From: Collinsella sp.
GTDB lineage: Bacteria > Actinomycetota > Coriobacteriia > Coriobacteriales > Coriobacteriaceae
Length of the DNA: 64,000 nucleotides
NCBI GenBank assembly: GCA_048500675.1
Contig: DBFSAO010000141.1
Location: 3,782 to 67,781 of the forward strand
Reading direction: 5' to 3'
A program made the translations under genes and the position numbers. The notes beneath the pieces are model-generated. The model ran no database searches. It was not told where the DNA came from and saw only the letters and a program-made list of their open reading frames with translations. Positions 3,867 through 33,695 of the stretch are shown here, piece by piece. The number at the start of each line of letters is the position of its first letter. Within the stretch, counting starts at the first letter, position 1.

Positions 3867-4080
3867 AGCTCTATCCTCGCCAATTCTTTAAGAAGCCTTT
3901 ACGTTTCCGTGTAATTCCCGTCCATTATCGCGCAGGCCGCCACTACATTGCGCCACACCGCCGCACATGCGCGTTAATATGGCTGGTTGTTGTGCGCAGC
4001 CCGCAAATGCAGCGCATATTTAGGTAACAATCGGGTAAACCCCCGCTTTCGTAGGTTTTAAGTTTGTGAGGAGTCTCAGC

Positions 4081-6381
4081 ATGTTCGCTGCCGCCATCTC
4101 GCTCGTCGGTCTTGCGGCGACCGTCTACCTTGTCTTGCGCGAGGCCAAGGCCATTCGCGCTCAGTCGGGCACCGTCACCAAGGGCGCCTTCGCCTGGAGC
4201 GTCGCCTTTGGCCTGTTCCAGCTCTTTTTGACCGTCTGGGGCGCTATTGGTCTCGTCGCGCAAAACGAGCCGCTCGCCTTTGTGATGCTCATCCTGACCA
4301 ATGCCATCCTCACCGGCTGCGCTTGGGCCAGCATCGCCCGCGACCGCATCGCCCCGCGCGTCTTTGCGTTCGCCAAGCCCGACGCCCCCGCCCCCACCGG
4401 CAAGCTCGCCCGCCTGCGCGGCGCCTTTGTGGGCAAACCGCTCGTCGCCGCCGTCCTGTGCCTGCTGCTCGCCGGCGTTTTTGCGCTGCTGGGCATGGAG
4501 GTTTCGTCCAACCACGACTTTACCTGGGTCTACCCCCTATGCATCCTGCTCGAGTGGGCCATCATCACCACGCTCATGGTCGGCCTGTTCTTCCTGTTCC
4601 AGCACCACGGCGCAGCTCCCGCGGTCCTGGCCTTTGCCCTCTTTGTCCTGGGCATTGCCGAGTTCTTCGTCATCACGTTTAAATCCATGCCCATCCAGCC
4701 GGGTGACCTTTCGGCCATCTCCACTGCCGCCGCGGTCGCCGGCACCGGCTACACCTTCTCCATCTCGCTGTTCTGCGTGCTGTCCATGGGCTTTACCGCC
4801 ATCGCCATGCTGCTGTGCGAGTACGCCGGCCTAGTCGCACCGCATCGCCAGAAGGGCGCCGCCAACGCCAAGCGCATGCTGCTCACCAACCTGCTCGTCG
4901 CCGTACTGTGCCTGGGCGGTGTGACCGCACACGTCACGCTCATCGACTACTACAACACCCTCGGCATCACCGTCTACACCTGGCGCCCGCTCGAGAGCTA
5001 CTGGCGCGAGGGCTACCTGCCCGCTTTCATTAGCGCAGCGCAGTCCATCAAGCCGCCCAAACCCGCCGACTACTCCGTCGACGATGCCAAGGCCACGCTC
5101 AAAAAGTACGCCAAGGCCTACGACAAGTCCGACGCGGCCAAAAGCGACGAGCGCGCCGCCGCAAAGGAGCAGTTCGACAGCGAGAAGCCCACGGTCATCG
5201 CCATCATGAACGAGACCTTCTCAGACCTTTCCATCTACCAGAACATGCGCGCCGGCTACGAAGGCCCGCAGTACTTTAAGAACCTGTCCAACTGCCTCAG
5301 CCGCGGCAAGCTCTACGTGAGCGCCTACGGCGGCGGCACCGCCAATACCGAGTTTGAGTTTATGACCGGCAACTCCATGGCCAACCTGGGCTCGGGCGTG
5401 TACCCCTACACCATCTACAACATGGAAACGACCGGGAATCTGGCAGAGCAGTTCAAGTCGCTCGGCTATTCCACCACCGCCATGCACCCCAACCACGCAA
5501 CCAACTGGAACCGCGAGAACGTCTACAAGGACTTTGGCTTTGACCAGTTCCTGTCCATCAACGACTTCCAGGGCGCCGATACCCTGCGCGGGATGGTGAC
5601 CGACCAGGCTACCTACGACAAGATTCTTGAGCTGCTCGACCAGAACGCCGATCCTCAGTTTATCTTCGACGTGACCATGCAGAACCACTCGGGCTACGAC
5701 ACGGGCCTGCTGCCGGTCGACAAGCAGATGCATCTGAATATCGACACGACCGACCTGGACGCCAAGACCGTCGAGGACGGCACGCTGTCCGATGTCGACG
5801 AGTATGTCTCGTGCATCGAGCAGTCCGACCAGGCACTGCGCTACTTCCTCAATGCTCTGAGCAAGCTCGACCGCAAGGTTGTCGTGGTGTTCTGGGGCGA
5901 CCACCAGCCGTTCTTCCCGTCCAAGTTCAACGATAAGTGGTTTACCGGCGAGGACGACGCCACCCACCAGGAGCGCTTGTGGCAGACCGACTACATCATC
6001 TGGGCCAACTACGACGTTGCCGGCTGCGACCAGACGAGTGAGACCGACGACCTGTCCACCAACTACTTGTCCACCCAGCTGATGCAACTGATCGGCGCAC
6101 CGCTGACCGACTACCAGAAAGCGCACATGACGCTGCGCGAGTCGCTGCCCGCCATCAACTCGGTCGGCTACGAGGACGCCAGCCTGCGCTGGGCGCTCTC
6201 CTCCAACGTCACCGGTGACGACGACGCCGCCGCTGCCGCCACCAAGGCACGCGAGGATTACGCCAAGATGCAGTACTACGAGATGTTCCGCGACGGCAAG
6301 AACGTCTATACGGAGCACTTCCAGACCGAGGCCAACGAGACCGATCCCAACCTGGCGCCGGGCACGACCAAGATCAAGTAG
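4081..6381 (+). CDS. LTA synthase family / sulfatase-like phosphoglycerol transferase (multi-TM N-terminus plus extracellular sulfatase-fold domain)
   Basis: About 5 or more N-terminal TM helices, then IAIMNETFSDLS and NTEFEFMTGNS motifs characteristic of LtaS/MdoB-type enzymes. ATG at 4081 is preceded by GAGGAG; the track start is GTG at 4066. Confidence 0.8.
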   Translation: MFAAAISLVGLAATVYLVLREAKAIRAQSGTVTKGAFAWSVAFGLFQLFLTVWGAIGLVAQNEPLAFVMLILTNAILTGCAWASIARDRIAPRVFAFAKPDAPAPTGKLARLRGAFVGKPLVAAVLCLLLAGVFALLGMEVSSNHDFTWVYPLCILLEWAIITTLMVGLFFLFQHHGAAPAVLAFALFVLGIAEFFVITFKSMPIQPGDLSAISTAAAVAGTGYTFSISLFCVLSMGFTAIAMLLCEYAGLVAPHRQKGAANAKRMLLTNLLVAVLCLGGVTAHVTLIDYYNTLGITVYTWRPLESYWREGYLPAFISAAQSIKPPKPADYSVDDAKATLKKYAKAYDKSDAAKSDERAAAKEQFDSEKPTVIAIMNETFSDLSIYQNMRAGYEGPQYFKNLSNCLSRGKLYVSAYGGGTANTEFEFMTGNSMANLGSGVYPYTIYNMETTGNLAEQFKSLGYSTTAMHPNHATNWNRENVYKDFGFDQFLSINDFQGADTLRGMVTDQATYDKILELLDQNADPQFIFDVTMQNHSGYDTGLLPVDKQMHLNIDTTDLDAKTVEDGTLSDVDEYVSCIEQSDQALRYFLNALSKLDRKVVVVFWGDHQPFFPSKFNDKWFTGEDDATHQERLWQTDYIIWANYDVAGCDQTSETDDLSTNYLSTQLMQLIGAPLTDYQKAHMTLRESLPAINSVGYEDASLRWALSSNVTGDDDAAAAATKAREDYAKMQYYEMFRDGKNVYTEHFQTEANETDPNLAPGTTKIK

Positions 6382-6594: not shown

Positions 6595-6625
6595 GAAGGC
6601 CACGTTGTGTGGCCTTCTTTGTTTG
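6595..6625 (+). terminator. Intrinsic terminator GAAGGCCAC-N5-GTGGCCTTC plus TTTGTTTG
   Basis: 9-bp stem followed by a T-run on the plus strand, downstream of the ltaS-like gene. The same stem sequence forms the apical hairpin of P2 (11530-11552). Confidence 0.6.
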
Positions 6626-6736
6626 CGGAAAGCGCGTCCCGGAATCTGACGTTGGAATGGGATGTAGTTTCCGGTTGAGGGTCTGTTGGGAAAGTGCGTC
6701 CCACTTTGGGGGCTGATTCTGGGATGTAGTTTCCGG
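6626..6736. repeat. Partial array (about 2 units) of the 62-bp hairpin repeat
   Basis: TGGGATGTAGTTTCCGG-N12-TGGGAAAGTGCGTCCCA-CTTTGGGGGCTGATTC-TGGGATGTAGTTTCCGG. Same unit and same orientation as the array at 10940-11435. Confidence 0.75.
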
Positions 6737-6757
6737 TTGCCGAGTCTTTGCTCGATA

Positions 6758-6797
6758 GAAAACCCGGGTAGCCTGGTGGTTGGCTACCCGGGTTTTT
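6758..6797 (-). terminator. Hairpin AACCCGGGTAGCC-N8-GGCTACCCGGGTT flanked by A/T runs
   Basis: 13-bp perfect stem about 30 bp downstream of the 1373-aa gene stop, with runs on both sides (bidirectional). Confidence 0.65.
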
Positions 6798-6823
6798 GGT
6801 TTGCCGTTGCCCCCTGCTGATGG

Positions 6824-9800
6824 CTAGTGGTTCTTGCGGCGTTTAGCCAACATGACGAGGGCTATTGCCACTAGGATGATGCCTGCTGCTGCAGCGGTGG
6901 CGACCAGGGCGAATGTTTGGTCGCCGGTGTTTGCGAGGTTCTTCGCTGTGGTCGTAGTCTTGACCTTGGTGTCGGTCTTAGCTCCATTGTCGGACTTGGG
7001 CTTGTCCGGGTTCGTCGGGGTCTCAGGAGTCTCGGGGTCCTTTGAGCCTTCGGAATCAGTGGAGCCGGCGGTGTTCACCAACGTGTGATCCAGGAACTTC
7101 TTGGCACCCGCGCTTGCCCGCTTGAACAGGCGCGTGCGGATCGGGGTGGCGTTCACCGTTGTGGGCGCCGTCTCCTCGGCCTCGATATTCACGAGCGTCG
7201 TGCCGGTGTCGAGGCCCACGTCGTTGTATCCCACGTGGCAGTAATACTGCGCACCGTCATCGTCTGCGGTCAGGTCAATCTCGAGCTTTGAGGCCGTTCC
7301 AGCCGCGAGGTTGCCATCGGCACCCACGAGCTTAAACTCTGTCTCGCCGCGGCCCTTGCGGTACCACATATAGGTCGGTGCCAGCCCTGTTTCGCTATCG
7401 TCGGCACCGAGTTGCTTCACATGGCCAATCGCCGAGAGCGTCAGGTGGCTTCCCGCCGTGCGCTCAACCGAAGAGTCGTATCCAAGATCCGACCCCTCCG
7501 CAGCATCCGCCGCAGGTCCGCTCACGGTCATCGTCATGCCATCGGGCATGGTCTTGACCGTGATGATTGCCGAGCGAATACCTGTTTCGGTCGTGGATCC
7601 ATTCTTAACGGCGGCGATGGCGAATCGATACTCCGTATTGGGCTGCAGCCCATCCCACTTGAGCGAGGTCTGCGTGTTGTCGGCAATCTTCCAGCTATTG
7701 ACGACCGCATCCGCCGCATTGCTCTGCAGCATGCCAACGCCGTAGCTAAAGCCACTCTTGTTTGCAAGTACATCGTCCCAGCTAAACGTAACGCTGGTCG
7801 AATCGACGGCGTTTGCCGTAAAGCCCGTCACGGCCGGCGCGTCGGGCATCTCGACGTCCTTAACGTCATAGCCCACGATCCAGAACTGGTCGGTGTCCTT
7901 GGTGCCGAGCTTGTCGCCCGAGTCTGCCTCGAACTTGTCGACATCCACCGCGTTGACGCCCAGACGCCACACAAAACCGTACTTGCCCTGCGCGGCCTCG
8001 GGCAGGTTGTCGACGGTGCCGCCGTATTCGGTCGATTCACTCGAGGAGTTACCCGTAGTAAAGCCGGCGTTGGCACCAAAGCACAGGCCGCCAAACAACT
8101 CGTGCTTTGCGAGCTTCGCGCCCATGACAACGCTGCCGTTCAGCGTCAAGCCGAGCTCGAGCTCCTGCTCCTTGCCCTCCTCGACTTCGATGGTCTGCTC
8201 AATGCTCGCCCCCGACTGCGCGGCGGCGCCGTTAAACCCATCGTGCGTGTAGGCGCGCGTTACGCCAGGCTTGCCCAGGCCAAAGGAATCCCCAACGGGA
8301 GTCTCGCCGTTGAGCGTCGTTTGATAGGTTCCGGGTTCTCCCGACCGGTTGGTCAAAAAGTAGCTGAGCGGCGTCATATTGTGCTGTTTGGCAATGCGGT
8401 CATAGGCCTCGACATTAACGACCGAGGTATGCGCGCCGAGCGACACGGGCGCCGCCATCACGCCCTTGCCACCAGTTTCCTCATTTTCGATCTCATACTC
8501 GTAATAGACCATCGGAATCGTGTAGAGCACGGCCTTGTCACCCTCGCCGGCATGCGACTCATAGCTTACGCTTGCGCTGACCGTGCGCTCGCTCCGGTAG
8601 TCATAGCATCCCTCGGCGGCAAAATCGACTGAAGCATTCATCGCGACCAGGGGCGGACCGGTCTGCACCTCGACGGCAACGCCCAACTCGGCGCCAATGG
8701 TATAGCCCTGGGATGTCCCCGTGCCCTTTTCCTCTCCGTATGACGTGCCGCCCAACACCAGATAGCCGTATGCCTGCTCCAGATCCTCAACATAGGGCGC
8801 ATCCTGCAGCACGGCAAGCACGCGCGGGTTGGTATAGACCTTGTAGCGGTCCTTGTACGTGATCTTGACGCTGTCGTTGTCGACATCGGGCAGCGCGAGC
8901 GAGATAAATGTGCCGTAGGTAGTGCCGCGACGGTTGCTCTCGCTAATCACCTGCTCCTCGCCGCGGCGCACCTTTCCGTTCTCGTCGAGCGAAAAATGCG
9001 AGGCGGTCATCCAATAGTAGTCATCGTTCTTGCGCAGGTCCTCGTCGCGGTGCTTGCCCACCACGGCGATAAAGCTCTCGTTATAGCGGTCCGAACCCGA
9101 GACGCTGCCCGCCTTGACGTCGCTGATCCACACCTGCTCTATACCCTTGTGGTCATGCTTGTTGCTGCTGTTGTATTGCTGACCGCTCATGCTCATGGTT
9201 CCGACCATGGACCCCAAGCCCTGAGCCCCGCTCTGTGCCGTGTTGCAGGCAAAGTCGCGGAACACATCGCCGCCCACGAGCACCTCGTCGACCGCCAGCT
9301 GCTCGGACAGGCCGTCAAGGTTGGCAGTGGCAAGGGCAATAGGCGCCAAGGTGCACGGATAGCGCTTATCCTGAGCGCTATCCTTCCATGCGCTGTTGGG
9401 CGCATGCATCAGCCCATAGGAGGCGAGGAGCCCGTCTCTGTATTCCTTGCAATCGGAAAGCTTGAACTCGCCAGACTCCGAGTCAAAATACGCGTAGCGG
9501 TACAGCGCGCCGTACAGCCCCTTGCTGCCGTCAGAAGCGCCGTAATCAAAAGCGCTGCGTTGCCAGTCATAGCCCGCAAGAATAAGGCCCGTGACGGTTT
9601 CACCCGTCTTCTTTCCTTCTTCATCGTAGGCGGCAAACGTGCCGAACGTCGCATTCGCAGCGACCATGGTCTTGCCGTTCGCGGAGAGGGAGATTGCGCC
9701 CGCGTCGCCCAGAGCATCGACATGGACGAGCGCACCCTTGGATGCATCCCACGAAAACAGCTCGCAATGCGTCGACTTATCAATATTCTTCTTGCCGTAG

Positions 9801-10945
9801 GGTGCCGAGACCACGATGGCGAGGTCATCGCAAAAATCGCGATCGAGGTCGCCGGCCGCTAGCGAAACGACAGGAGCTGACTGAAGCTGCGTCCAGGAGT
9901 CGTTCCCGCCCTTGTTGTGCGTGGTGTAGTCCGCGGCGTTACCGGCATCGATCTTGACGACGCTTTGCTTCCAGTTGCCGCCCTCCAAGTCATACATGTC
10001 GACTACAGCCTTGCGCACGCCGTTCTCGTCGACATAGCAGCCCGCGTAGACAAAAAGCTCGTCGACGCCGTCGCCATCGACATCGCCCGCCTCGACATCA
10101 AAGACGGCGTCGTGCTCTTGCAGGTAACCGGCATCCAGGTACTTAAAACGGCCTTCGTACATCATATTAGTGTTGACCGTCACCGGCAGGTGTGTGTCGA
10201 GAGTGCGCGTACGCCCGTTGCTAAACGAGTAGAGGACCAGCTCAACCTTTCCGGCGTATGACTTGCCGTCAATCGTCGTGGAGGAACTGTCGCCGTAGGC
10301 ACGGAGCTCGGCAACGCGGCTCTTTTTGCCCGTGCTGGCGTCGCTGCAGAACTCAACACTCGTGGCGTGAATGCCCGAGAAACCGTTGTTGTCGTTGGCG
10401 AGTACTGTTGAGGACTCATTGTTGCTTAGGTACGACCAGGTGCCGCCACCGTAGTCGCTATGCTTGTAGAGATCGCTGTTCGTATCGAAGTTGTTGACGT
10501 TTTGCCAGAACTTTGCGGCGCCCCACACACTTCCATAGCCATCGGTGAGTTTGCTGCTGCCGCCAATGTCACCGCGCTCGACGTTCTCGAGCTTGTCGCG
10601 CAGAGTGTAGCGATTGCCATGGCTACCGTTAGCTGCCATATAGACCTCGCTGCGCGTGGCAAACGTCGTGGGGGTATCAGTGGAATAGGGGCCAACGGTA
10701 TCGGCCGGAATGTCCTCGCTCGTGCCCAGACCCAGGGCTTGATAATCCTGCTCGGTCATATCGGTGATTGCGGGCGCGTCTGCCGCCTGGGCAACCTGGG
10801 GCGTGGCCGTGAAGCAGGCGACGCTCGTGGCGATCAACGCAGCAAGCGCCGCCGTCCCAACAAGCGGGATTTTCGACAGCCTACGGATACGGGGGTGTGG
10901 AACGTACATGAGGGACCTCGCTTTACTCGAGTGGAGTGGACTCAT
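6824..10945 (-). CDS. Large cell-wall-anchored surface protein: signal peptide, FG-GAP/VCBS-like repeats, unassigned beta-rich module, FN3 and Ig-like domains, LANTG sorting signal
   Basis: N-terminal signal (LVGTAALAALIATSVACFTATPQVAQA). DVDGDGVDELFVY and AAGDLDRDFCDDLAIVV resemble FG-GAP-type Ca-binding loops. An FN3-like stretch ends in NTEYRFAIAAV. The C-terminus is LANTGD plus a hydrophobic helix plus KRRKNH. Confidence 0.85.
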   Translation of the reverse strand: MSPLHSSKARSLMYVPHPRIRRLSKIPLVGTAALAALIATSVACFTATPQVAQAADAPAITDMTEQDYQALGLGTSEDIPADTVGPYSTDTPTTFATRSEVYMAANGSHGNRYTLRDKLENVERGDIGGSSKLTDGYGSVWGAAKFWQNVNNFDTNSDLYKHSDYGGGTWSYLSNNESSTVLANDNNGFSGIHATSVEFCSDASTGKKSRVAELRAYGDSSSTTIDGKSYAGKVELVLYSFSNGRTRTLDTHLPVTVNTNMMYEGRFKYLDAGYLQEHDAVFDVEAGDVDGDGVDELFVYAGCYVDENGVRKAVVDMYDLEGGNWKQSVVKIDAGNAADYTTHNKGGNDSWTQLQSAPVVSLAAGDLDRDFCDDLAIVVSAPYGKKNIDKSTHCELFSWDASKGALVHVDALGDAGAISLSANGKTMVAANATFGTFAAYDEEGKKTGETVTGLILAGYDWQRSAFDYGASDGSKGLYGALYRYAYFDSESGEFKLSDCKEYRDGLLASYGLMHAPNSAWKDSAQDKRYPCTLAPIALATANLDGLSEQLAVDEVLVGGDVFRDFACNTAQSGAQGLGSMVGTMSMSGQQYNSSNKHDHKGIEQVWISDVKAGSVSGSDRYNESFIAVVGKHRDEDLRKNDDYYWMTASHFSLDENGKVRRGEEQVISESNRRGTTYGTFISLALPDVDNDSVKITYKDRYKVYTNPRVLAVLQDAPYVEDLEQAYGYLVLGGTSYGEEKGTGTSQGYTIGAELGVAVEVQTGPPLVAMNASVDFAAEGCYDYRSERTVSASVSYESHAGEGDKAVLYTIPMVYYEYEIENEETGGKGVMAAPVSLGAHTSVVNVEAYDRIAKQHNMTPLSYFLTNRSGEPGTYQTTLNGETPVGDSFGLGKPGVTRAYTHDGFNGAAAQSGASIEQTIEVEEGKEQELELGLTLNGSVVMGAKLAKHELFGGLCFGANAGFTTGNSSSESTEYGGTVDNLPEAAQGKYGFVWRLGVNAVDVDKFEADSGDKLGTKDTDQFWIVGYDVKDVEMPDAPAVTGFTANAVDSTSVTFSWDDVLANKSGFSYGVGMLQSNAADAVVNSWKIADNTQTSLKWDGLQPNTEYRFAIAAVKNGSTTETGIRSAIITVKTMPDGMTMTVSGPAADAAEGSDLGYDSSVERTAGSHLTLSAIGHVKQLGADDSETGLAPTYMWYRKGRGETEFKLVGADGNLAAGTASKLEIDLTADDDGAQYYCHVGYNDVGLDTGTTLVNIEAEETAPTTVNATPIRTRLFKRASAGAKKFLDHTLVNTAGSTDSEGSKDPETPETPTNPDKPKSDNGAKTDTKVKTTTTAKNLANTGDQTFALVATAAAAGIILVAIALVMLAKRRKNH

Positions 10946-11435
10946 TTTTGCAAATGATACGTCCGATGCCCGATATCACGTGTCTCATTTTCGCCAACGG
11001 CGTGTCTCATTTTTGAGAATCCGAGATGCCGCGGAAATCTTATCCCAGCTCAAAGGCCATTTCTGGGATGTATTTTCCGTCGAGTGCCTCATCGGGAAAC
11101 TGCATCCCATTTCAAGCGTCGATTCTTGGACGCACTTTCCCCTTAGACCCTCAACCGGAAACCGCATCCCACTTTGAGCGCAAATTCCGGGATGCATTTT
11201 CCGGTTTTGCTCTCATTGGGAAAATGCATCCCGTTTCTTGACCGAATAATGGGACGCAATTTCCCGTTGGAACGCCTTTGGGAAAGTGTGTCCCACTTCG
11301 AACGCCCAGAGTGGGATGCACTTTCCGCAAAGCACCTCAACGGGAAACTACGTCCCATTCCAAAGGCAAATTCCGGGACGCATTTTTCGAAAGCCTGCCC
11401 ATCCGGAAAGCCCGTCCCACTTTGGACGCATCCGG
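10940..11435. repeat. Tandem array of 62-bp hairpin units (6 conserved plus 2 decayed)
   Basis: Units start at 11064, 11126, 11188, 11250, 11312 and 11374, exactly 62 bp apart. Each has arms GGGAYGNNNTTTCC / GGAAANNNCRTCCC around a 12-14 nt loop plus a 16-nt conserved linker. Decayed units at 10940 and 11002 reach the adhesin start codon. Confidence 0.85.
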
Positions 11436-11478
11436 GCACGGAACCATCGACCTATCAGGCCTCCCATCAATAAAGAGG

Positions 11479-11607
11479 CGTCCTCCCGGACGGCGGGGCA
11501 CGAAGTTCATCGCGAGTTCCGCACGCAAAGAAGGCCACTTAATGTGGCCTTCGTCTTGCGCAGGACTGTAGAGCAGGGAACTTCGTGCCCCGACGCCCGG
11601 GAGGACG
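11479..11607 (-). repeat. Long imperfect palindrome, family P copy 2 (129 bp)
   Basis: Arms CGTCCTCCCGGACGGCGGGGCACGAAG / CTTCGTGCCCCGACGCCCGGGAGGACG and apical hairpin GAAGGCCACTTAATGTGGCCTTC. It lies 43 bp downstream of the flavodoxin-like stop. Confidence 0.8.
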
Positions 11608-11649
11608 TTTCATTTAGAAAGATGGACCGACCGCCGTCAGCGATGGGAG

Positions 11650-12207
11650 CTACTCCCCCAGCACGGCCTTCTTGGCCGCCGCCGCCATGTTGTCCAGATC
11701 TTCCTTGGTGGGGTGATCCTTTGCGGCAACCCAGTTGTCGAGCAGCAACTTAGCGCGCGCGTTGTCGGGATCTTGCTCGAGCATGGCCTCGTAGCGCTGC
11801 TTGACCGCAGGGCCCATCTTACCCTGGCACATCGCCCAGCCCGCAAGCTCGGCATCATCGGCCAAATTGGAAGTTACGCGGTCGATAATCTGCTGATAAT
11901 AGCTCTGGTCGGCGCCAAAACCGCAGGTACCAAACAGGAAGACGCGCTTACCGTGCAAGGCGGAGAGCAACGCCGCGACCGAAGGCGTGCACGCGCCCTT
12001 GTCGCACCAAAAACCGACGAGCACCGTGTCGGCCGCGCAGGCGCCCTGCGCCTCGAGCGCAACCTGATCTGCATCTGCATCGTCACTCAACGCCGCGGCA
12101 TGGACAAACTCAACGCCCGCAGCCTGCAAAGTGCGCTTGATCGCACCCGAAACCATCCTGGTATTACCGCTCTTGCTGTTAACCACCAAAGAGCACGTCA
12201 TAGTCAC
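11650..12207 (-). CDS. Flavodoxin-like family protein
   Basis: N-terminal LVVNSKSGNTRMV (flavodoxin phosphate-binding-type loop) and about 185 aa. Confidence 0.65.
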   Translation of the reverse strand: MTMTCSLVVNSKSGNTRMVSGAIKRTLQAAGVEFVHAAALSDDADADQVALEAQGACAADTVLVGFWCDKGACTPSVAALLSALHGKRVFLFGTCGFGADQSYYQQIIDRVTSNLADDAELAGWAMCQGKMGPAVKQRYEAMLEQDPDNARAKLLLDNWVAAKDHPTKEDLDNMAAAAKKAVLGE

Positions 12208-16045: not shown

Positions 16046-16260
16046 GTATAGGCGCTCCCTATCATCATCCACATTCAATTCGAACCATGATAGTACCGCC
16101 ACCCCAAAAGAAGCGTAAACAACTCGTCATTTCTAATGGGATTCGGTTTCCAAAGAAGCGGAAAGGCACGCGCACACCCAGCCAGTGTCGGGTCGACCGC
16201 TTGGTATACTTACATTAGTGCTACCAAGTTAGTCGCCAACCCTTGAAATGAGGTGCCGAG

Positions 16261-17328
16261 ATGAACGACATTCTCGCAAGAAGTGCAAGACGCGCAACCG
16301 TGGGCATCGCCCTTTCCGCGGCACTTGTCGCAGGAATCGCCCCCGCAACGGCGATAGCGGCGGAAACCAGTTCCCCCACCGGTGCGGCCGTTTCGCAGAC
16401 GAGCGCCGCCAACGGCAATTCGGGCGCCCCGCAGACAGAAGACGCGGCCGCCGCAAAAGAAAAAGCGTATGCAGCCATGCAGGAAGCGCTCAAAAACCTC
16501 GAGGCCGCAAAAGACGCCGCAAGTCCCGAGAAAATTGCGAGATTCAATGATGACATTGCCCGTTTTCAAGAGCTCCGCGACAAGATGGCGGCGCAAGCCG
16601 TCGAAGAGAGGGAACTCCTTCCCACCATGCAAGCGGACATCGATGCAGCCCAAGCCAAATACGACGGGGCCATCAACCGGGTAAGCGAGCTCCAAGCAGA
16701 ATTAGACAAGAAACTTGAGGTGCTTAAGGCACTCGAAGCGCTCGGCGACGAGGAGCTTGTCGAAACTGTTAAACAGCAAATAAAGCAGTTGCGCCAAGAG
16801 ATCGTAACGGCAAAAGCGCGAGTTGACTTTTGCGAAATGGAGCTCCGCGAGGTCAAGGGCCGCCTCGAAAGGCAGGAAAGACAAGTTAATGACTGTGAAC
16901 GTGCTGCAGAGAAGTATAAAGCCCATACCGACCAGTTCATAGCCTGGCGAGATGCGCTCCTCGACAATTTGAAAAAAGCGCAAACGGCCTATGACGACGC
17001 CTGCAAGGCATACGAAGAGGCAAAGGCCGCAGCAGACAAGGCCACCTCGCCCGAGATAACGCAACCGACCGAGACGACGCCTCCCTCCAACTCGGCGCAA
17101 CCGGCCGAGGCGACACAGCCCACCGGCTCGTCCGCGACCGGCAAAAATACCCCGCCAAGCTCCACCAAGCAGGCGAACTCGAGCAGCGGCAAGCAAGCAG
17201 ATACGACCGCCGGCAAGCTCGCGAACACGGGCGACGCAGCGCCGAGCGCAATCGCACTCGCAGGAATCGCCGCCGTAGGACTCGGAATAACCACCGCAGC
17301 CACACGCCGCATCAAGAACTCAAAATAG
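16261..17328 (+). CDS. Coiled-coil surface protein with signal peptide and LANTG cell-wall sorting signal (paralog A)
   Basis: Signal peptide ending ATAIAAE, a long Ala/Glu/Lys/Gln-rich helical core, a Pro/Thr/Ser stalk, and LANTGD plus hydrophobic helix plus RRIKNSK. GAGGTG lies upstream of the ATG. Confidence 0.8.
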   Translation: MNDILARSARRATVGIALSAALVAGIAPATAIAAETSSPTGAAVSQTSAANGNSGAPQTEDAAAAKEKAYAAMQEALKNLEAAKDAASPEKIARFNDDIARFQELRDKMAAQAVEERELLPTMQADIDAAQAKYDGAINRVSELQAELDKKLEVLKALEALGDEELVETVKQQIKQLRQEIVTAKARVDFCEMELREVKGRLERQERQVNDCERAAEKYKAHTDQFIAWRDALLDNLKKAQTAYDDACKAYEEAKAAADKATSPEITQPTETTPPSNSAQPAEATQPTGSSATGKNTPPSSTKQANSSSGKQADTTAGKLANTGDAAPSAIALAGIAAVGLGITTAATRRIKNSK

Positions 17329-17626: not shown

Positions 17627-18595
17627 ATGAACGACATTCTCGCAAGAAGTGCAAGACGCGCAACCGTGGGCATCGCCCTTTCCGCGGCACTTGTCGCAGG
17701 AATCGCCCCCGCAACGGCGATCGCGGCGGAAACCAGTTCCCCCACCGGTGCAGTTGCCTTGCAGGCGGAAGATGCGGCCACCGCAAAAGAAAAAGCGTAT
17801 GCAGCCATGCAGGAAGCGCTCAAAAACCTCGAGGCCGCAAAAGTTGCCGCAAGTCCCGAGAAACTTGCGGCAATCGATGATGACATTGCCGCATTTCAAG
17901 AACTCTACGACATGGTGGTGGCGGAAGCCGCCAAATGGAGGAAACCCCTTCCCGCCATGCAAGCGAACGTCGATGCAGCCCAAGCCAAATACGATGAGGC
18001 CCACAACCGGACAAGCGGCCTTCAGGCAGAATTAAATAAGGCAATCGGCGACGGAGCTTCTAACGAAACTATTAAGCAGTTGCGAAGTGAGATCATGTCG
18101 GCAGAAAGGCGAGAAAAATCTTGTGAAGATGATCTTCACTCCTACCAACGCCAGCTCGAAAGCCAGGAAAGACAGGTTCAGCGTTTCGAAAGTGAGGCGG
18201 AGGAAGCTAAAGCCCACATCGACGAGGACATAACCAAGCAAAACGCGCTCCTCGACGATTTGGAAAAGGCGCAAGCGGCCTATGACGATGCCTGCAAAGC
18301 ATACGAAGAGGCAAAAGCCGCGGCAGACAAGGCCACCTCACCCGAGATAACGAAACCCGCCGAGACGACAAAACCCTCCAGCTCAGCGCAGCCGGCCGAA
18401 ACGGCACAGCCCGCCAGCTCGCCCGCGACCGGCAAATACGCTCCATCGAGCTCCACCAAGCAAGCAAATACGACCACCGGCAAGCTCGCGAACACAGGCG
18501 ACACAGCGCCGAGCGCAATCACACTCGCAGGAATCGCCGCCGCAGGCCTCGGAATAACCGCCACAGCCACACGCCGCATCAAGAACTCAAAATAG
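17627..18595 (+). CDS. Coiled-coil surface protein with signal peptide and LANTG sorting signal (paralog B)
   Basis: The first 42 aa are identical to paralog A and the same C-terminal stalk/anchor is present, but the central coiled coil has diverged. The promoter/leader is also duplicated. Confidence 0.8.
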   Translation: MNDILARSARRATVGIALSAALVAGIAPATAIAAETSSPTGAVALQAEDAATAKEKAYAAMQEALKNLEAAKVAASPEKLAAIDDDIAAFQELYDMVVAEAAKWRKPLPAMQANVDAAQAKYDEAHNRTSGLQAELNKAIGDGASNETIKQLRSEIMSAERREKSCEDDLHSYQRQLESQERQVQRFESEAEEAKAHIDEDITKQNALLDDLEKAQAAYDDACKAYEEAKAAADKATSPEITKPAETTKPSSSAQPAETAQPASSPATGKYAPSSSTKQANTTTGKLANTGDTAPSAITLAGIAAAGLGITATATRRIKNSK

Positions 18596-18941: not shown

Positions 18942-19133
18942 CGCACTCGATGGATTCGGATGCCCGACAGAGGCTCCTTATGGCTGCTTCCTTCCGGACC
19001 TGACCAGATTCGGAACATGTCGTCATCCGAACCCATCGAACGCGCTAGGCGCTCGGTATATCTTACCTGCTCCCGCCCGCCACGGCAAGTGGGGCGAACC
19101 CATCGGATGGATTCGCCCCACTCGTCCATATCG

Positions 19134-22100
19134 CTAGCGGCGCCTGCGGTACAGGACCGCGCCGCCCGCGACGGCCAGCGCGCCGATGCCGGCCATGGCG
19201 CCGAGCGCCTCGACCGGCAGGCTGCGGTCGCCGGTGTCGGGCATACCGCCCTTGGAGCCGTCACCGCTAGCGCCGCTGCCGGAGCCGTTATCTGAACCGC
19301 CGCCCGAGCCGCCGCCCGGCGTGCCGGGGTTCTCGGGGGTGCCGGGGGTCCCGGGCTCCTCGGCATAGCTGTTGGTGAAGACCGGCGGCATGTTGGCGTC
19401 GCCCTCGTAGGAGACCTTCGCCGACAGATAGCCCGTCTTGGTGCCGTCTGCCGCCTCGTCGCTCACCGTGACGACGATCTTGTGCACCGCCTTGTCGTAG
19501 GTCACGTGCGCCTGGCCGTCGTCGACCTCGCTCACCGTGAAGGTGTAGGTGCCGGCCTGCTTGAAGGTCAGCGCATCGAACGTGACGCTGCCGTCCGCGG
19601 CATTCTTGGCGGTCGACATGACCTTGCCGTCCCGGCTCTTGAGCTCAAAGCTAAACTGGCCCGCCTTGAGCTCGGCGCCCTTGAGCACCTTGGCGGCGCC
19701 CAGCTTGAGGGTGACGGGTGCGGCCTCGTAGCCGTTGGTAAAGGTCACCGAGGTGTCGCCCACGGCATTGCCCTCGGCATCCGCCAGCTCGTGCCTGACG
19801 GTGAGCGTGCCGTTTCCGGCGTCGGCAACCGTCGTGCGCACGCGGTACGCCGCCCTGTCGTACGTCACGCCGCCCGCCGTGCCGGCGATCTCGCGCAGCT
19901 CGTAGCCGTGCGTACCGGGCGCGGTGTAGGTAACGGGGCTGAGCGCGACCGTGCCGTCGGCGGCGTTCTTGCCCGTCGCCGCGACGCTCTCACTGCCGTC
20001 GGCGGCAATCTCGACCAGCTGGAACTCGAACTCGCCCTCGGCCAGGTCGCGGCCCTTGAGCTTCTTGTTCACCTTGATCTGGTCGGTGACGGAGCTCGGC
20101 GTCGGGTTCACGCCGTAGGTGTTGGTGAACTCGAACGCGCCCTTGCCCTCGGGCGTACCCTCTGCGGGCAGGACCTCCGCGACGAGCGTGCCCGCGTTGG
20201 TGTCCTCGACCACCTTGACCGCGAAGGTCCTCGTCGCCGTCGCGTCGTTGACCACGCCGTCGACCGAACCGGACTCGCTCACCCGGTAGGCGAACGTCTT
20301 GGTGCGCAGGCCGCCGCCGTCGATCTTGACGTCATCGAGGTCGCTCGGCTGCCTGAACGTGACGTGGCCCAGCTCGACGTTGCCGGCGGCGTCGTTGGTC
20401 GCCTCGGTCACCGTCTTACCGGAGGCGTCGACCGGCGCGGGCGCGCCGTCCAACGGCGTGATCTTAAAGGTGTACTTGCCCGCAATGTCGGCCTGCGTGA
20501 GGCCGAGTCCGGCCTGGCCGAGCGCCAGCGTCTTGGTGCCCGCAAGGTCGACCGTCGCCTCGTTGGTGCCGTAGCCGTTCACAAACGACAGCGTGCCGTC
20601 GGAGCCCTCGGGGTAGACCACGGCCACATCCAGCCCGCCCTTGCCGTTATCGGTCACCTTGACCGTGATATCGAAGCTCGAGGCGGTCGCCGTCACGCCC
20701 GCGGACAGCCGGTCCGTGCCGTCCTCGGATACGGTATAGGGAATGACCCAGGAGCCGTCGGCGGCCCTGGTGGCGATGCCGTCCGCCACCATCCGCTCGA
20801 GAGCGTCGGTGGTGTAGGCAATGGGCGAGAACGCAAGTCCCGCGGCCTCGCCGTCGCCGGAGGCCTGGTTGGTCGCGGTCGCGACCGCGTTACCCTGGGC
20901 ATCGCGTACGGAGAACGAGAACTCGCCCGCCGCCGCGGCGCGACCCGTCAGCGTCTTGGTGGCGTTAATTGCCACGTTGCCCTCGCCGCCGAGCGTTCCG
21001 GTGGCCTCGTAGGAGTTCTCGAACGCGACCGTCACGGGCGCAGGCGTCGCCATGGCGTCATCTGCCGTGGAGACCTCGCTGCGGGTAACCTCGACACCGT
21101 CCTTGGCAACCGTGGTCGTGACTATGAGCTTGCCCGTCGCGGTATCGTAGGCGGGCGCGATGGTCACCGTGCGCGGCGCGGTGTCGTTGGCGTAGCCCTC
21201 GCCGCCGAGCTTGGTCTCGGCGACGGTGAAGCGGTAGACCTTGCCCGCATCGGCATCGGTGAACTTCACGTCGCCCTCCGCGGCACCGCCGATGAGGTCG
21301 ACCAGGTCGGCCGCGCCGTCATCGGCCGCGGCCACGGCGTAGGCGTCCTTGTCGGTCTTAAGGCCGAGCTTGGCGGCCGTCTCGGCGTCCGCGGTCACGG
21401 TGAAGGCGAACTGCCCCGCCTCCATGGCGCGACCACAGAGCGTCTTGGACAGGCGCACGCCCGCGCGGGCCGAGTAGTCGAGCTCGGTCGTGTAGGTGTT
21501 GACGAAGTCGCCGCCGCTCACCTCCGCGATCGCGGGCGTCGTGACCGCGAGGTTGCCGGAGCCGTCATCGGTCACGGTCACCGTCATCGTGGCGACGTGG
21601 CCGTCGTAGGCCACGCCGGCGATGGCAGAGCCGTCATCGGGCCTGACCTCGCGCACCGTGTAGGTGAGGGTCTTGGCGCGCACGCGCTTGCCGCCGACCT
21701 CGGCGAACTCGGCATCCTTGATGTCATCGAGCGTGTAGCGGATGGAGCCGAAGTCGAAGGCGACCTTAGCGCCCGCCCTGGTGCCGGCGGCGGCCGTCAC
21801 ACTGACGGTCTTGGAGCCGTCGGCAGATCCCTCGGGCATGGGGGCGCCGTCCTCGCCCGCAAGCGCGAACTGGAAGCTGTCGCCCTCCGCCCAGTCGCGA
21901 CCCTTGAGCGTCTTGGTGAAGAGCCCCGCGGTGGAGACGTCCCTGCCCTCGGCAGCCGTTCCGTACGTATTGGTGAACGCGACGGTCGAGCCGTCCTCGG
22001 TCACGGCGCCTTCGGCCTTGGAGCCGTCAGCCCCGTTGACCGTGGTCGTATAGCCCTCGGCGGCGTCCTCGGCCACGGTGTAGCGCGCGCCCACGGGCAG

Positions 22101-31100: not shown

Positions 31101-31118
31101 CGCACACACGCGATTCAT
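19134..31118 (-). CDS. Giant cell-wall-anchored adhesin (about 3994 aa from ATG 31118): signal peptide, PA14/fibro-slime-like domain, CnaB-type and DUF11-type repeats, about 18 pilin-isopeptide (Spy0128/FctA-like) modules, Gly/Pro/Ser stalk, MPDTG sorting signal
   Basis: Single 12-kb ORF. The signal peptide is [46 protein letters not shown] and [19 protein letters not shown] match fibro-slime/PA14-type motifs. Repeated K-x-L-x-GR ... Y-x-Y-x-I-x-E ... F-[TV]-N-x-Y module boundaries occur 18 times. The C-terminus is MPDTGD plus TM plus RRRR. ATG at 31118 is preceded by GGGGAGGG; the track start at 31271 would bury the signal peptide. Confidence 0.9.
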   Translation of the reverse strand: [3994 protein letters not shown]

Positions 31119-31154
31119 GAAGGCCCTCCCCAAATCCATGAGGACGGCAAGCAG

Positions 31155-31192
31155 CGGCTCGCTATATATGTGTGTCGTCCCCATCGATGCAA
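31155..31192 (-). promoter_or_regulatory. Candidate sigma-70-type promoter of the giant adhesin gene (TTGCAT-N17/18-TATATA)
   Basis: The minus strand reads TTGCAT CGATGGGGACGACACAC ATATATA. It lies about 40-70 nt upstream of ATG 31118 in a locally AT-rich stretch. Confidence 0.3.
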
Positions 31193-31199
31193 ATATACG

Positions 31200-31208
31200 C
31201 CCCCCCCC
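31200..31208. repeat. Homopolymeric C9 (G9 on the coding strand of the adhesin)
   Basis: Nine consecutive C residues, 8 nt upstream of the putative -35 hexamer and 82-90 nt upstream of ATG 31118. Confidence 0.95.
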
Positions 31209-31387
31209 GCGCAGAAACGCAAGGCGGGACATCGCAATATACTTAAAATTGTAGCAATTTAAACGACCCACTATTCCGCGTCAGGTTGCCACTCGGTCGT
31301 CAAATCGAACCATTCGCGCCATCAAAGGGGTTCGGCGGGATAAAACCGTCGGCAATCTTTATCCCCACAGCCCCACAAGGTAGCTAA

Positions 31388-33605: not shown

Positions 33606-33695
33606 GGAGAGATGGCAGAGCGGTTGAATGCGGCGGTCTTGAAAACCGTTGAGCGCGAGAGCGTTCCGGGGGTTCGAATCCCCCTCTCTCCGCCA
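33606..33695 (+). tRNA. tRNA-Ser (anticodon UGA), CCA encoded
   Basis: Acceptor GGAGAGA/TCTCTCC, anticodon loop CTTGAAA, long variable arm, T-loop GGTTCGAATCC, discriminator G plus CCA. Confidence 0.9.

Follow-up and report, generated by a model that had tools for sequence, protein, structure and literature searches.

Phased arrays of alternating 14-nt boxes around an adhesin gene and their probable place in a Collinsella-specific, BIME-like repeat family

Introduction

In a 64-kb stretch of Collinsella sp. DNA (hereafter the window), a row of 62-bp repeat units lies upstream of the gene of a large surface adhesin, which raises the question of what such an array is and whether it belongs to this gene at all. 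The initial annotation had offered three roles: a multi-hairpin 5' leader, a protein-binding scaffold controlling the adhesin, or a BIME-like REP cluster. The last of these came closest, while the framing around the adhesin found no support. The array (array 1) is very probably one member of an interspersed intergenic repeat family specific for Collinsella and resembling BIMEs, i.e., regularly spaced REPs of alternating orientation that bind proteins (PMC2817692). The best overall explanation, to which we assign a probability of roughly 0.6, is a new, genus-specific BIME-like family whose boxes act as phased protein sites.

Architecture of the array and of its locus

The 62-bp register of array 1 holds throughout, with zero indels within the window, and the six well-kept units reported earlier were recovered at 11064, 11126, 11188, 11250, 11312, and 11374, in steps of exactly 62 bp. 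Self-identity of the array (11033-11435) reaches 0.613, 0.624, and 0.590 at lags of 62, 124, and 186, against a mean of 0.245 and a maximum of 0.367 at other lags and 0.383 as the highest value in 1000 shuffles. Pairwise identity between units is 50-74%, and because it is this low (below 70%), array 1 was not reported by Tandem Repeats Finder run on the window.

The left and right arms of the unit are indeed inverted copies of one 14-nt box (a perfect 14/14 match in unit 3), yet the dimensions first given, a 12-14-nt loop and a 16-nt linker, had to be corrected to a 16-nt loop and an 18-nt linker between 14-nt arms. The box reads GGGA-YGYRN-TTTCC and is paired with its own reverse complement in each unit; its core, the five bases Y-R-Y-R-N between GGGA and TTTCC, varies almost only by transitions. 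Boxes follow every 30/32 nt in strictly alternating orientation (+ - + -), thus placing their centres 31 bp, or three helical turns, apart, with half-site centres about 9.5-10 bp from each other. The 18-nt linker is polar (consensus AtTcTGAGCGc..ATTCc) and alternates with looser linkers of 16/15 nt, hence a period of 62 bp and sometimes of 61 bp. In turn, the 16-nt linker has a weak polarity uncorrelated with that of the 18-nt linker, the only one that is clearly polar, and orienting entire 62-nt units by nhmmer failed, giving mixed orientation in 79 of 137 arrays. The window has 19 exact matches to GGGA-N5-TTTCC against 0.29 expected, and 15 of the 19 lie inside arrays. A box such as GGGAYGYRNTTTCC has only weak internal symmetry (GG.A....T.CC), and pairing is possible only between a box and a neighbouring box.

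The view that the array is neither CRISPR, nor coding, nor a simple terminator was upheld. It is non-coding, since 62 is no multiple of 3, and in place of direct repeats of 21-48 nt with unique spacers it has alternating boxes with conserved 16/18-nt "spacers." At its gathering score, Rfam, Collinsella-1 included, returned no match to the window array; a limit of E up to 10 brought only chance miRNA-like matches. Of two further candidates, a sigma-54 promoter (TGGGACG-N4-TTCC compared with TGGCACG-N4-TTGC) was discarded on inspection, as the -12 GC is missing; a Type I restriction-modification target (bipartite 4-N5-5 format) would leave both the Y-R-Y-R core and the periodicity unaccounted for.

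Array 1 does not fill the whole upstream region of the adhesin gene but begins at 11033 (Table 1), because the sequence taken for decayed units at 10940 and, in its left part, at 11002 lies outside it. The former shows 0.31 identity to the unit consensus, compared with 0.19-0.27 for unrelated flanking frames; of the latter, only the right half (the box at 11033-11046 and an 18-nt linker) is genuine. The DNA at 10910-11032 is unique and accompanies the adhesin gene in orthologues, and three direct TCATTTTYG-type repeats at 10938-11019 account for the supposed units. Read from the sequence, the probable start codon is the ATG at 10909-10907 (complement), preceded by GAGG, instead of 10945, which gives a protein of about 1361 aa in place of 1373 aa.

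Table 1. Features of the adhesin locus in the window (positions are those of the window)
Feature	Position	Strand	Description
Left anchor gene	4066..6381	+	771 aa, Pfam Sulfatase domain, membrane N-terminus; conserved at hot spot
Palindrome P1	6389..6544	.	Reverse-complement copy of P2
Intrinsic-terminator-like hairpin and T-run	6595..6617	+	Behind 771-aa gene
Array 2	6627..6734	.	4 boxes (2 units), same repeat family as array 1
Perfect hairpin, U-runs on both strands	6759..6796	-	Between adhesin stop codon and array 2
Adhesin gene	6824..10909	-	Surface protein with fn3 domain, anchored by sortase (LANTG)
Adhesin promoter/leader	10910..11032	-	Unique DNA outside array
Array 1	11033..11435	.	13 boxes (6.5 units), 62-bp repeat
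Array 1 box starts, first seven	11033, 11065, 11095, 11127, 11157, 11189, 11219	-, +, -, +, -, +, -	
Array 1 box starts, last six	11251, 11281, 11313, 11343, 11375, 11405	+, -, +, -, +, -	
Array 1 tail	after final listed box		18-nt linker-like stretch and decayed last box
Palindrome P2	11466..11619	.	Central hairpin, then TTTG on minus strand
Right anchor gene	11650..12207	-	Flavodoxin_3, 185 aa; conserved at hot spot

The window contains two arrays in total, one on either side of the adhesin gene. Array 2, overlooked initially, is placed between the terminator of the upstream 771-aa gene and that of the adhesin; it begins 10 nt past the hairpin and T-run of the former, and the perfect hairpin on its other side is probably the adhesin terminator. 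As for array 1, it sits between the flavodoxin 3' end, with P2, and the adhesin promoter, and the hairpin of P2 with its TTTG on the minus strand looks terminator-like for the flavodoxin gene. P2 is missing from the adhesin-less version of this hot spot, and the P palindromes were ruled out as general partners of arrays, being restricted to the adhesin hot spot. A promoter scan detected no consensus promoter in, near, or beyond array 1.

Distribution across Collinsella genomes

Searching a public genome collection with the two-arm pattern yielded matches, as 8-kb tiles, in at least 120 stretches. The unit is not confined to the adhesin: boxes and spacing recur in at least 120 Collinsella loci. 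Among the matches listed, nearly all stretches are titled Collinsella or Coriobacteriaceae, the exceptions being a few metagenome-assembled genomes named "uncultured bacterium" and one "uncultured Ruminococcus sp."; a scan of a viral collection gave one match only. One of the listed arrays belongs to C. aerofaciens ATCC 25986 (L079 6562-6974, contig NZ_CAXVJM010000001.1). No published description of the repeat family was found in the searchable literature.

The listed matches contain 958 boxes with at most one mismatch in 950 kb (about 10 expected by chance), only 4 of them solitary, and arrays of 2.5-10 units with a maximum of 20 boxes. The distance from box to box is 32 nt in 450 of 456 cases and 30 or 29 nt in 403 of 406, which bears out the earlier preference for a constraint on spacing over recent duplication; it is kept in about 120 listed loci of different Collinsella species, though the linkers are just about half identical. 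The opposing thought, that the unit might be a generic REP scattered without phasing or association, thus proved half right: an association is lacking, yet the phasing is kept everywhere.

Genes in the scanned loci were called by a crude GC3-based caller. Among the matches listed, the arrays are extragenic (3 of 130 overlap a called ORF) and occupy about 58 distinct flanking-gene contexts, across which no specific association with the adhesin or with a gene class was seen. The neighbours include patatin, flavodoxin, ATPase/DUF234, and PTS-like membrane protein genes, a gene for a 925-aa protein resembling, by appearance and not by domain scan, a xanthine-dehydrogenase-type molybdoenzyme, and others. 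In the same set, 158 array sides face gene 3' ends and 69 face 5' ends; with each distinct context counted once, 18 are convergent, 19 co-directional, and 6 divergent. REPs of the RAYT-associated kind typically flank a RAYT (Y1 transposase) gene; the flanking-gene families checked here comprise no transposase-like or other mobilising genes.

The same sites in different strains

In three genomes (L021, L072, and L101), the same anchor genes enclose a single uninterrupted array and no adhesin gene, which contradicts an adhesin-specific array; units 3-6 of the window have their orthologues in the right-hand units of the L021 array. The hot spot was found in empty, filled, and alternative states, and the adhesin gene is a variable cargo inside a pre-existing array region, not the client of the array. 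A gene for a 332-aa protein of no known family is likewise flanked by arrays on both sides. A DUF559-type endonuclease, suggested by its C-terminus, was considered and dropped, as Pfam and NCBIfam gave no confirmation of that assignment. The 232-aa gene that seems to replace it in L087 is a gene-caller artefact, the loci being collinear, and the idea that cargo resides where a bipolar array changes its polarity failed across loci.

The number of units differs at one locus between strains, as in minisatellites (VNTRs). Upstream of the adhesin gene, 7 genomes have an orthologous array of 15 boxes. In the window there are 13, array 1 being short of precisely one 61-nt unit with identical GGGATGCATTTTCC boxes at its borders, and the downstream array has 4 boxes in the window compared with 8-12 in orthologues. 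Between L087 and L030, two arrays differ by +1 and -1 unit. The L012 contig terminates in arrays at both sides.

Conservation of boxes and linkers

The unit had been presented as a hairpin, but its arms vary independently: 85.0% of cells are paired compared with 84.6% in shuffles, 73 of 500 shuffles being as high, and no covariation was detected for either possible hairpin on either strand. Given this lack of covariation, the hairpins arise incidentally from the conservation of the boxes. Divergence between orthologues is 0.005 per site in half-sites, 0.050 in the core, and 0.028-0.036 in linkers, with 0.029 in other intergenic DNA and 0.087 at codon third positions for comparison; arrays overall diverge by 0.038. 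The GGGA and TTTCC half-sites are the only exceptionally conserved parts, 6-10 times more than the rest, an estimate biased upward because boxes were defined by motif similarity. A special constraint on the linkers was ruled out, their divergence being like that of other intergenic DNA. As far as sequence comparison can tell, the constrained object is the boxes, not the stems.

Proposed mechanism and alternatives

For the reading of the boxes as phased protein sites we propose the following mechanism, tentatively and at a little less than even odds. A sequence-specific protein is predicted to read the invariant GGGA/TTTCC half-sites. With boxes 31 bp and half-sites about 9.5-10 bp apart, all contacts would lie on a single face of the duplex, so that the array would load a phased row or wrap of protein. 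Such a structure may mark the ends of transcription units or insulate them, and hairpins or cruciforms may also be extruded where inverted boxes lie next to each other. Slippage, or unequal exchange, at identical boxes would lengthen and shorten the arrays, a process that would also delete or capture genes lying between two of them. In a more far-reaching form, which we regard as distinctly unlikely, the arrays would be platforms for a dedicated Collinsella protein that reads GGGA-N5-TTTCC every three turns, builds a polar nucleoprotein boundary at transcription-unit ends, and makes them preferred breakpoints for swapping cassettes (surface-protein and other single genes) between strains. Two observations sit uneasily with protein sites: the transition-only Y-R-Y-R core is equally expected of an RNA stem in which G-U pairs are tolerated, and the orientation of the 18-nt linker is mostly opposite to incoming transcription. 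In addition, no transposase was seen beside the arrays that would account for their spread to dozens of loci.

An unlikely competitor is an RNA-level element, in which 3' trailers or read-through transcripts fold into rows of hairpins that block 3'-5' exonucleases or aid termination, as in E. coli REP mRNAs. Among the matches listed, a recognisable terminator precedes the array in 15 of 43 3'-facing genes and none in the other 28, and often just 20-60 nt lie between stop codon and array, which makes transcription of many arrays probable. The strand opposite the linker consensus tends to be the one transcribed from the adjacent upstream gene (40.8 vs. 13.8 modules in co-directional contexts; 26 of 36 end modules in convergent ones), and on this strand G-U pairs outnumber A-C mismatches (307 vs. 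204). Array 1 folds at -194 kcal/mol on the gene-transcribed strand and at -171 on the other, both with z below -8. Linker polarity, G-U excess, terminator-less 3' ends, and the almost exclusively transitional changes of the core thus favour or allow a role in RNA. Yet neither hairpin covaries on any strand, loops of 16-18 nt are long for stabiliser hairpins, each box can pair with either neighbour, and the sense strand is more stable in just 12 of 19 contexts. Moreover, good terminators stand ahead of arrays in the window, L001, L079, and L021, hairpins do not call for linkers of such uniform length (32 nt in 99%), and the G-U excess could stem from transcription-associated C-to-T mutation.

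We consider it improbable that the arrays are selfish or neutral minisatellites of no host function, with boxes kept only for their own spread or slippage. Such an origin would suit the copy number varying between strains, the whole-array divergence close to that of other intergenic DNA (0.038 vs. 0.029 per site), a location behind genes, where insertion is least harmful, and the broken assemblies exemplified by the L012 contig ends. Old inert copies should decay, however, whereas half-sites at orthologous positions are 6-10 times more conserved, solitary or degenerate boxes are almost absent, and no mobilising gene was seen beside arrays. Furthermore, both members carry an array in 246 of 280 locus pairs with the same flanking genes, a figure biased by the choice of loci for arrays, at least one member of each pair being array-bearing.

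A very poor chance is given to the arrays being recombination or cassette boundaries, i.e., places where strains gain, lose, or swap single genes such as the adhesin. The bracketing of the adhesin and 332-aa genes and the three states of the hot spot agree with it, as do a same neighbour across the array in 0.71 of locus pairs (0.89 elsewhere) and 2.64 different neighbours of array-adjacent anchor genes compared with 1.40. But this synteny effect is modest and depends on a crude gene caller, most arrays stand alone and keep one pair of flanking genes, no gene for a recombinase adjoins them, cassette junctions are not placeable at a fixed nucleotide, and array-to-array deletion requires no dedicated system. 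Finally, control specific to the adhesin, by a 5' leader of hairpins or a protein scaffold, is almost certainly wrong: array 1 does lie upstream of the gene and its size difference between strains (13 vs. 15 boxes) could tune expression, but about 58 unrelated contexts are known among the matches listed, most array sides face 3' ends, the array remains where the adhesin gene is absent, between it and the start codon lie 120 nt of unique sequence that has direct repeats of its own, and no promoter-like site lies within or beyond it.

Comparison with known systems

In Gram-positive or actinobacterial genomes, intergenic tandem arrays with units of 40-100 bp are known as MIRU-type minisatellites in mycobacteria, BOX in pneumococcus, and STAR in S. 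aureus; their strain-dependent copy number makes them usable for typing, and MIRUs often contain small overlapping reading frames. The Collinsella arrays are equally intergenic, tandem, and strain-variable, yet units of the former are repeated directly and lack a bipartite box in strict alternation. Plasmid centromeres, such as sopC of F (12 x 43 bp with an inverted repeat in each) and parC of R1, share head-to-tail units of exact period, with a protein site per unit forming a phased nucleoprotein complex. These are, however, single-copy plasmid loci adjoining partition genes, whereas the Collinsella arrays are chromosomal, present at many loci, and have no par genes alongside.

The closest likeness is with BIME clusters (E. 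coli BIME-2, Xanthomonas REP clusters), which also consist of alternating short elements with fixed linker lengths, are tandemly amplified to variable copy number, and lie extragenically, mainly behind genes, with lineage-specific sequence (PMC2817692, PMC3333891). The same cluster architecture is seen in Collinsella, where more than 98% of about 860 intervals among the matches listed measure 30/29 or 32 nt. A REP, in contrast, measures 20-40 nt, forms a GC-rich imperfect palindrome by itself, and has a GT(A/G)G head (PMC2817692), while the Collinsella box has 14 nt, is not itself palindromic, and shows no GTAG/GTGG in position-wise frequencies of box and linkers. In further contrast to REPs, single boxes and lone doublets are almost absent, and the host is an actinobacterium. 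E. coli REP325, a six-repeat cluster that acts with HU in nucleoid organisation and has a documented architectural role at the DNA and RNA level, similarly has about six units able to form cruciforms (PMC4550694); there is no sequence relation, and the likeness is architectural only. REPINs of Pseudomonas share two inverted short repeats around a spacer and tandem clusters (PMC3116915, PMC3337134), but are mostly dispersed single doublets in hundreds of copies mobilised by RAYT, whereas the Collinsella arrays have no lone doublets and much shorter spacers.

Significance

The genus Collinsella is abundant in the human gut and has a very fine species structure. As their position is conserved while unit number varies, the arrays could serve as strain-typing markers, and they are the probable cause of many assembly breaks in metagenome-assembled genomes of Collinsella. 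For annotation, the lesson is that a neighbouring array should not be taken as the regulatory region of a gene. Invariant half-sites of 4-5 bp, exact three-turn phasing, and no covariation of stems make these arrays a clean test case, suited to deciding between the reading of BIME-like clusters as DNA bound by protein and that as RNA. Should a dedicated protein indeed read the boxes, they would represent a chromosome-wide "punctuation" system unrelated in sequence and protein to REP/RAYT.

Structure of the arrays in the window

Set out in 62-nt rows, the region 10700-11800 contains the six well-kept units initially annotated with starts at 11064, 11126, 11188, 11250, 11312 and 11374. Self-identity of 11033-11435 (array 1) is 0.613 at lag 62, 0.624 at lag 124 and 0.590 at lag 186; other lags average 0.245, and the highest value across all lags in 1000 shuffles is 0.383. 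Array 1 is missed by Tandem Repeats Finder because its units are just 50-74% identical; a seed-and-extend repeat finder detected it as family D1 (spacing 62 x4). The two decayed units proposed to continue it towards the adhesin gene fared less well: that at 10940 matches the unit consensus at 0.31 (vs. 0.19-0.27 in unrelated frames) and was discarded, while from that at 11002 only the right half (box 11033-11046) belongs to the array.

Each unit holds a 14-nt box, GGGAYGYRNTTTCC, and its reverse complement 30 nt on; the next box comes 32 nt further, so that the arms lie 16 nt and 18 nt apart and orientation alternates every ~31 bp. The window holds 17 boxes with ≤2 mismatches (3.1 expected) and 19 bare bipartite GGGA-N5-TTTCC elements (0.29 expected). 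Array 2, directly downstream of the adhesin gene, has four boxes spaced 32/30/32 as in array 1.

Features of the window from left to right; the array locus extends from the membrane protein gene to the flavodoxin gene
Feature	Position	Strand	Remarks
771-aa membrane protein gene		+	Pfam Sulfatase domain
Palindrome P1	6389-6544
Terminator	6595-6617
Array 2	6627-6734
Hairpin terminator	6759-6796
Adhesin gene	6824-10909	-	fn3 domain; LPXTG-type anchor with LANTG
Adhesin promoter/leader DNA	10910-11032		Unique; own short direct repeats (family D3)
Array 1	11033-11435
Palindrome P2	11466-11619
Flavodoxin gene		-
Solitary box-like GGGATTCGGTTTCC	16138-16151		Divergent region upstream of the next gene
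Sortase-anchored protein gene	16261-17328		LANTG-anchored, coiled-coil
Its tandem paralogue	17627-18595		LANTG-anchored, coiled-coil
Bacterial small SRP RNA	18944-19039	-	Rfam, gathering score
4045-aa surface protein gene	19134-31271
tRNA	33606-33692	+	Rfam, gathering score

P1 and P2 (each ~150 nt) are mutual reverse-complement copies. A 9-10-nt block differs between them compensatorily on both arms (ggaatgtaagg / cctaacattcc vs. ggggcacgaag / cttcgtgcccc), which suggests that selection or conversion has kept them palindromic. In other genomes these palindromes occur almost solely at this hot spot, sometimes on both array sides (L041, L061; L numbers denote public-genome loci returned by our scan). 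The window is rich in surface proteins, and the two tandem paralogues have near-identical promoters and first ~40 codons. Exact GGGA-N5-TTTCC sequences at 16362, 17728 and 17940 all lie within their coding sequences; the solitary GGGATTCGGTTTCC is kept at the orthologous site in L047 (7323) and L080 (2884). The SRP RNA and the tRNA were the only Rfam matches in the window at gathering score.

A Collinsella repeat family

The search of this and related genomes proposed in the initial annotation was run by box pattern ('+' box, 15-17 nt, '-' box) over one genome per prokaryotic species and returned at least 120 stretches with the phasing retained. Among the matches listed, nearly all titles are Collinsella or Coriobacteriaceae; the exceptions are a few MAGs, one named 'uncultured Ruminococcus sp.' and the others 'uncultured bacterium'. 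The window can thus be assigned to a Collinsella in the aerofaciens group, and its locus has near-identical orthologues in L036, L039, L104 and L115. The 950 kb of DNA around the matches listed contains 958 boxes with ≤1 mismatch (~10 by chance), almost all in clusters of 5-16 and only four solitary. In these matches the '- to +' distance is 32 nt in 450 of 456 cases, the '+ to -' distance is mostly 30 nt (336 cases; 29 nt in a further 67 and 31 nt in three), and arrays comprise ~2.5 to 10 units. Period and alternation thus belong to a genus-wide family.

The sole match in a viral collection, a 7-box array at L121 95-294, lies at the end of a 32.9-kb contig (IMGVR_UViG_3300045988_143567) and may be host DNA beside a prophage. 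Short contigs start or stop within arrays (L012, L048, L074, L010), and L012 (4874 nt, the whole contig) is the adhesin gene alone with an array at either end; evidently, arrays break short-read Collinsella assemblies.

Genes were called by a basic criterion, GC3 exceeding GC1, that had been calibrated on the window. Among the matches listed, array sides face 158 gene 3' ends and 69 5' ends, and only three of 130 arrays overlap a called ORF. Clustering of flanking proteins gave ~58 distinct contexts with unrelated genes: patatin, flavodoxin, ATPase/DUF234, a PTS-like membrane protein, a methyltransferase-like protein, sortase substrates and a 925-aa protein which, by its sequence, looks like a xanthine-dehydrogenase-type molybdoenzyme. 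Counted once per context, 18 are convergent, 19 co-directional and 6 divergent; against 1:2:1, convergent contexts are in excess and divergent ones in deficit. In C. aerofaciens ATCC 25986 (L079), two convergent genes flank the array, each separated from it by a terminator. REP/BIME elements are known to be distributed in this way, unlike promoter elements. We are about 90% confident that the window array belongs to a BIME-like family of intergenic repeats specific to Collinsella, and that it lies next to the adhesin gene only incidentally.

The conserved object is the box

Array 1 folds strongly compared with shuffles (plus strand -171 kcal/mol, z -10.8; minus strand -194 kcal/mol, z -8.8), but alternating inverted boxes make this inevitable, and it is no evidence of selected structure. 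The idea of a hairpin unit was not borne out, as the stem arms do not change together. Cores (the five bases between the half-sites GGGA and TTTCC) match at 0.53 in adjacent inverted boxes, 0.48-0.53 in non-adjacent boxes of the same array and 0.51 between boxes of different loci. Across 128 distinct 46-nt modules, the arms pair in 85.0% of cells vs. 84.6% with shuffled partners (73 of 500 shuffles as high), with a covariation score of 0.128 vs. 0.121 shuffled; covariation is absent for both possible hairpins (16-nt and 18-nt loop) on both strands. It is the box itself that is conserved: GGGA and TTTCC hardly vary, changes at core positions 5-8 are nearly all transitions (Y, R, Y, R) and position 9 is free. 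Between orthologous arrays of different species, half-sites alone stand out, with a divergence of 0.005 per site that is somewhat favoured by the box definition, compared with 0.050 in the core, 0.028 and 0.036 in the 18-nt and 16-nt linkers, 0.029 in neighbouring non-array intergenic DNA and 0.087 at codon third positions of flanking genes.

Half-site centres are ~9.5-10 bp apart and box centres 31 bp, a geometry that would place all predicted contacts on one face of B-DNA. Our tentative preference, held at slightly less than even odds, is that the bipartite boxes are recognised by a putative protein. Bound boxes would form a phased nucleoprotein structure at transcription-unit boundaries, and unit number would be altered via slippage or unequal exchange between boxes.

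Linker polarity and transcription

The 18-nt linker is directional (consensus AtTcTGAGCGc..ATTCc, median preference 24-bit). Adjacent modules share its direction in 252 of 321 cases; flips are common. Single linkers are flipped relative to their neighbours with flanking boxes unmoved in L001, L079 and many other arrays. Small hairpin-loop inversions occur in chloroplast DNA, and by this analogy the flips suggest that inverted boxes may pair as DNA at least occasionally.

We observed that the linker tends to point against incoming transcription (40.8 vs. 13.8 modules in co-directional contexts; in convergent ones, leftmost module leftward 14:4 and rightmost rightward 12:6). G-U pairs exceed A-C mismatches 307:204 on the strand complementary to the linker consensus; given this bias, that strand tends to be transcribed. 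Among 43 different genes with their 3' end towards an array, only 15 have a recognisable terminator ahead of it, and many of the gaps measure 20-60 nt, so many arrays are probably transcribed. These effects, modest in size, give some room to an RNA trailer of hairpins, the foremost alternative. Yet the sense strand is more stable in only 12 of 19 contexts, and these effects can also arise from transcription-associated mutation bias; we regard an RNA role as unlikely.

Unit number, gene order and the adhesin

In seven genomes the upstream array comprises 15 boxes; the window has 13 there, short of exactly one 61-nt unit that is flanked by identical GGGATGCATTTTCC boxes. Downstream, 4 boxes in the window compare with 8-12 elsewhere. 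Between L087 and L030, two arrays each differ by one unit. A selfish minisatellite without function seems less probable still than the RNA trailer.

Synteny is somewhat weaker across arrays than at other sites (same neighbour gene in 0.71 vs. 0.89 of locus pairs; 2.64 different neighbours per anchor gene vs. 1.40). We rate a dedicated recombination boundary as improbable.

In L021, L072 and L101, a single continuous array lies between the same two anchor genes (Sulfatase-domain and flavodoxin), without the adhesin gene and P2. Window units 3-6 correspond, linker by linker, to the right-hand units of the L021 array, whose left-hand unit corresponds to the outer one of the L014 downstream array; in L041 and L061 the order is P1, unbroken array, P2. 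As there is one array elsewhere, the window adhesin cassette (6735-11032) splits it between a '+' and a '-' box, and on this alignment the adhesin is best read as a passenger at the array site. A 332-aa gene, whose product has no Pfam or NCBIfam match, is likewise array-bracketed in six loci (L030 2086-3084, L038 6457-7455, L052, L057, L068 and L084); it lies between the molybdoenzyme-like and ATPase/DUF234 genes. The suggested adhesin control region can be set aside as highly improbable, since arrays occupy unrelated contexts, mostly 3' ends, and are present without the adhesin.

The unique promoter/leader DNA goes along with the adhesin gene in orthologous loci; the start codon is probably the ATG at 10909, preceded by GAGG. 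In this leader a TCATTTT(T/C)G-type motif is directly repeated three times (10938-11019) and may be an operator, separate from the array, for an adhesin regulator; there is also a 22-bp duplication relative to L036.

Relation to known clustered repeats

The arrays share cluster architecture and genomic distribution with REP/BIME elements. Most Xanthomonas REPs lie within such clusters; E. coli REP325, a six-repeat cluster, contributes to nucleoid condensation together with HU and an RNA (PMC4550694), and REPINs, which are pairs of inverted REPs, are mobilised by RAYT transposases (PMC3116915, PMC3337134). However, the Collinsella box is not itself palindromic, has no GTAG head and is almost never found singly, which places the arrays outside the REP definition. 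We found no description of them in the searchable literature and no match to the Rfam Collinsella-1 RNA motif. They belong to a known kind, clustered intergenic repeats, as a previously undescribed family. Its bipartite box, exact three-turn phasing and lack of stem covariation are unusual, and suit it well to the question of what reads such clusters.
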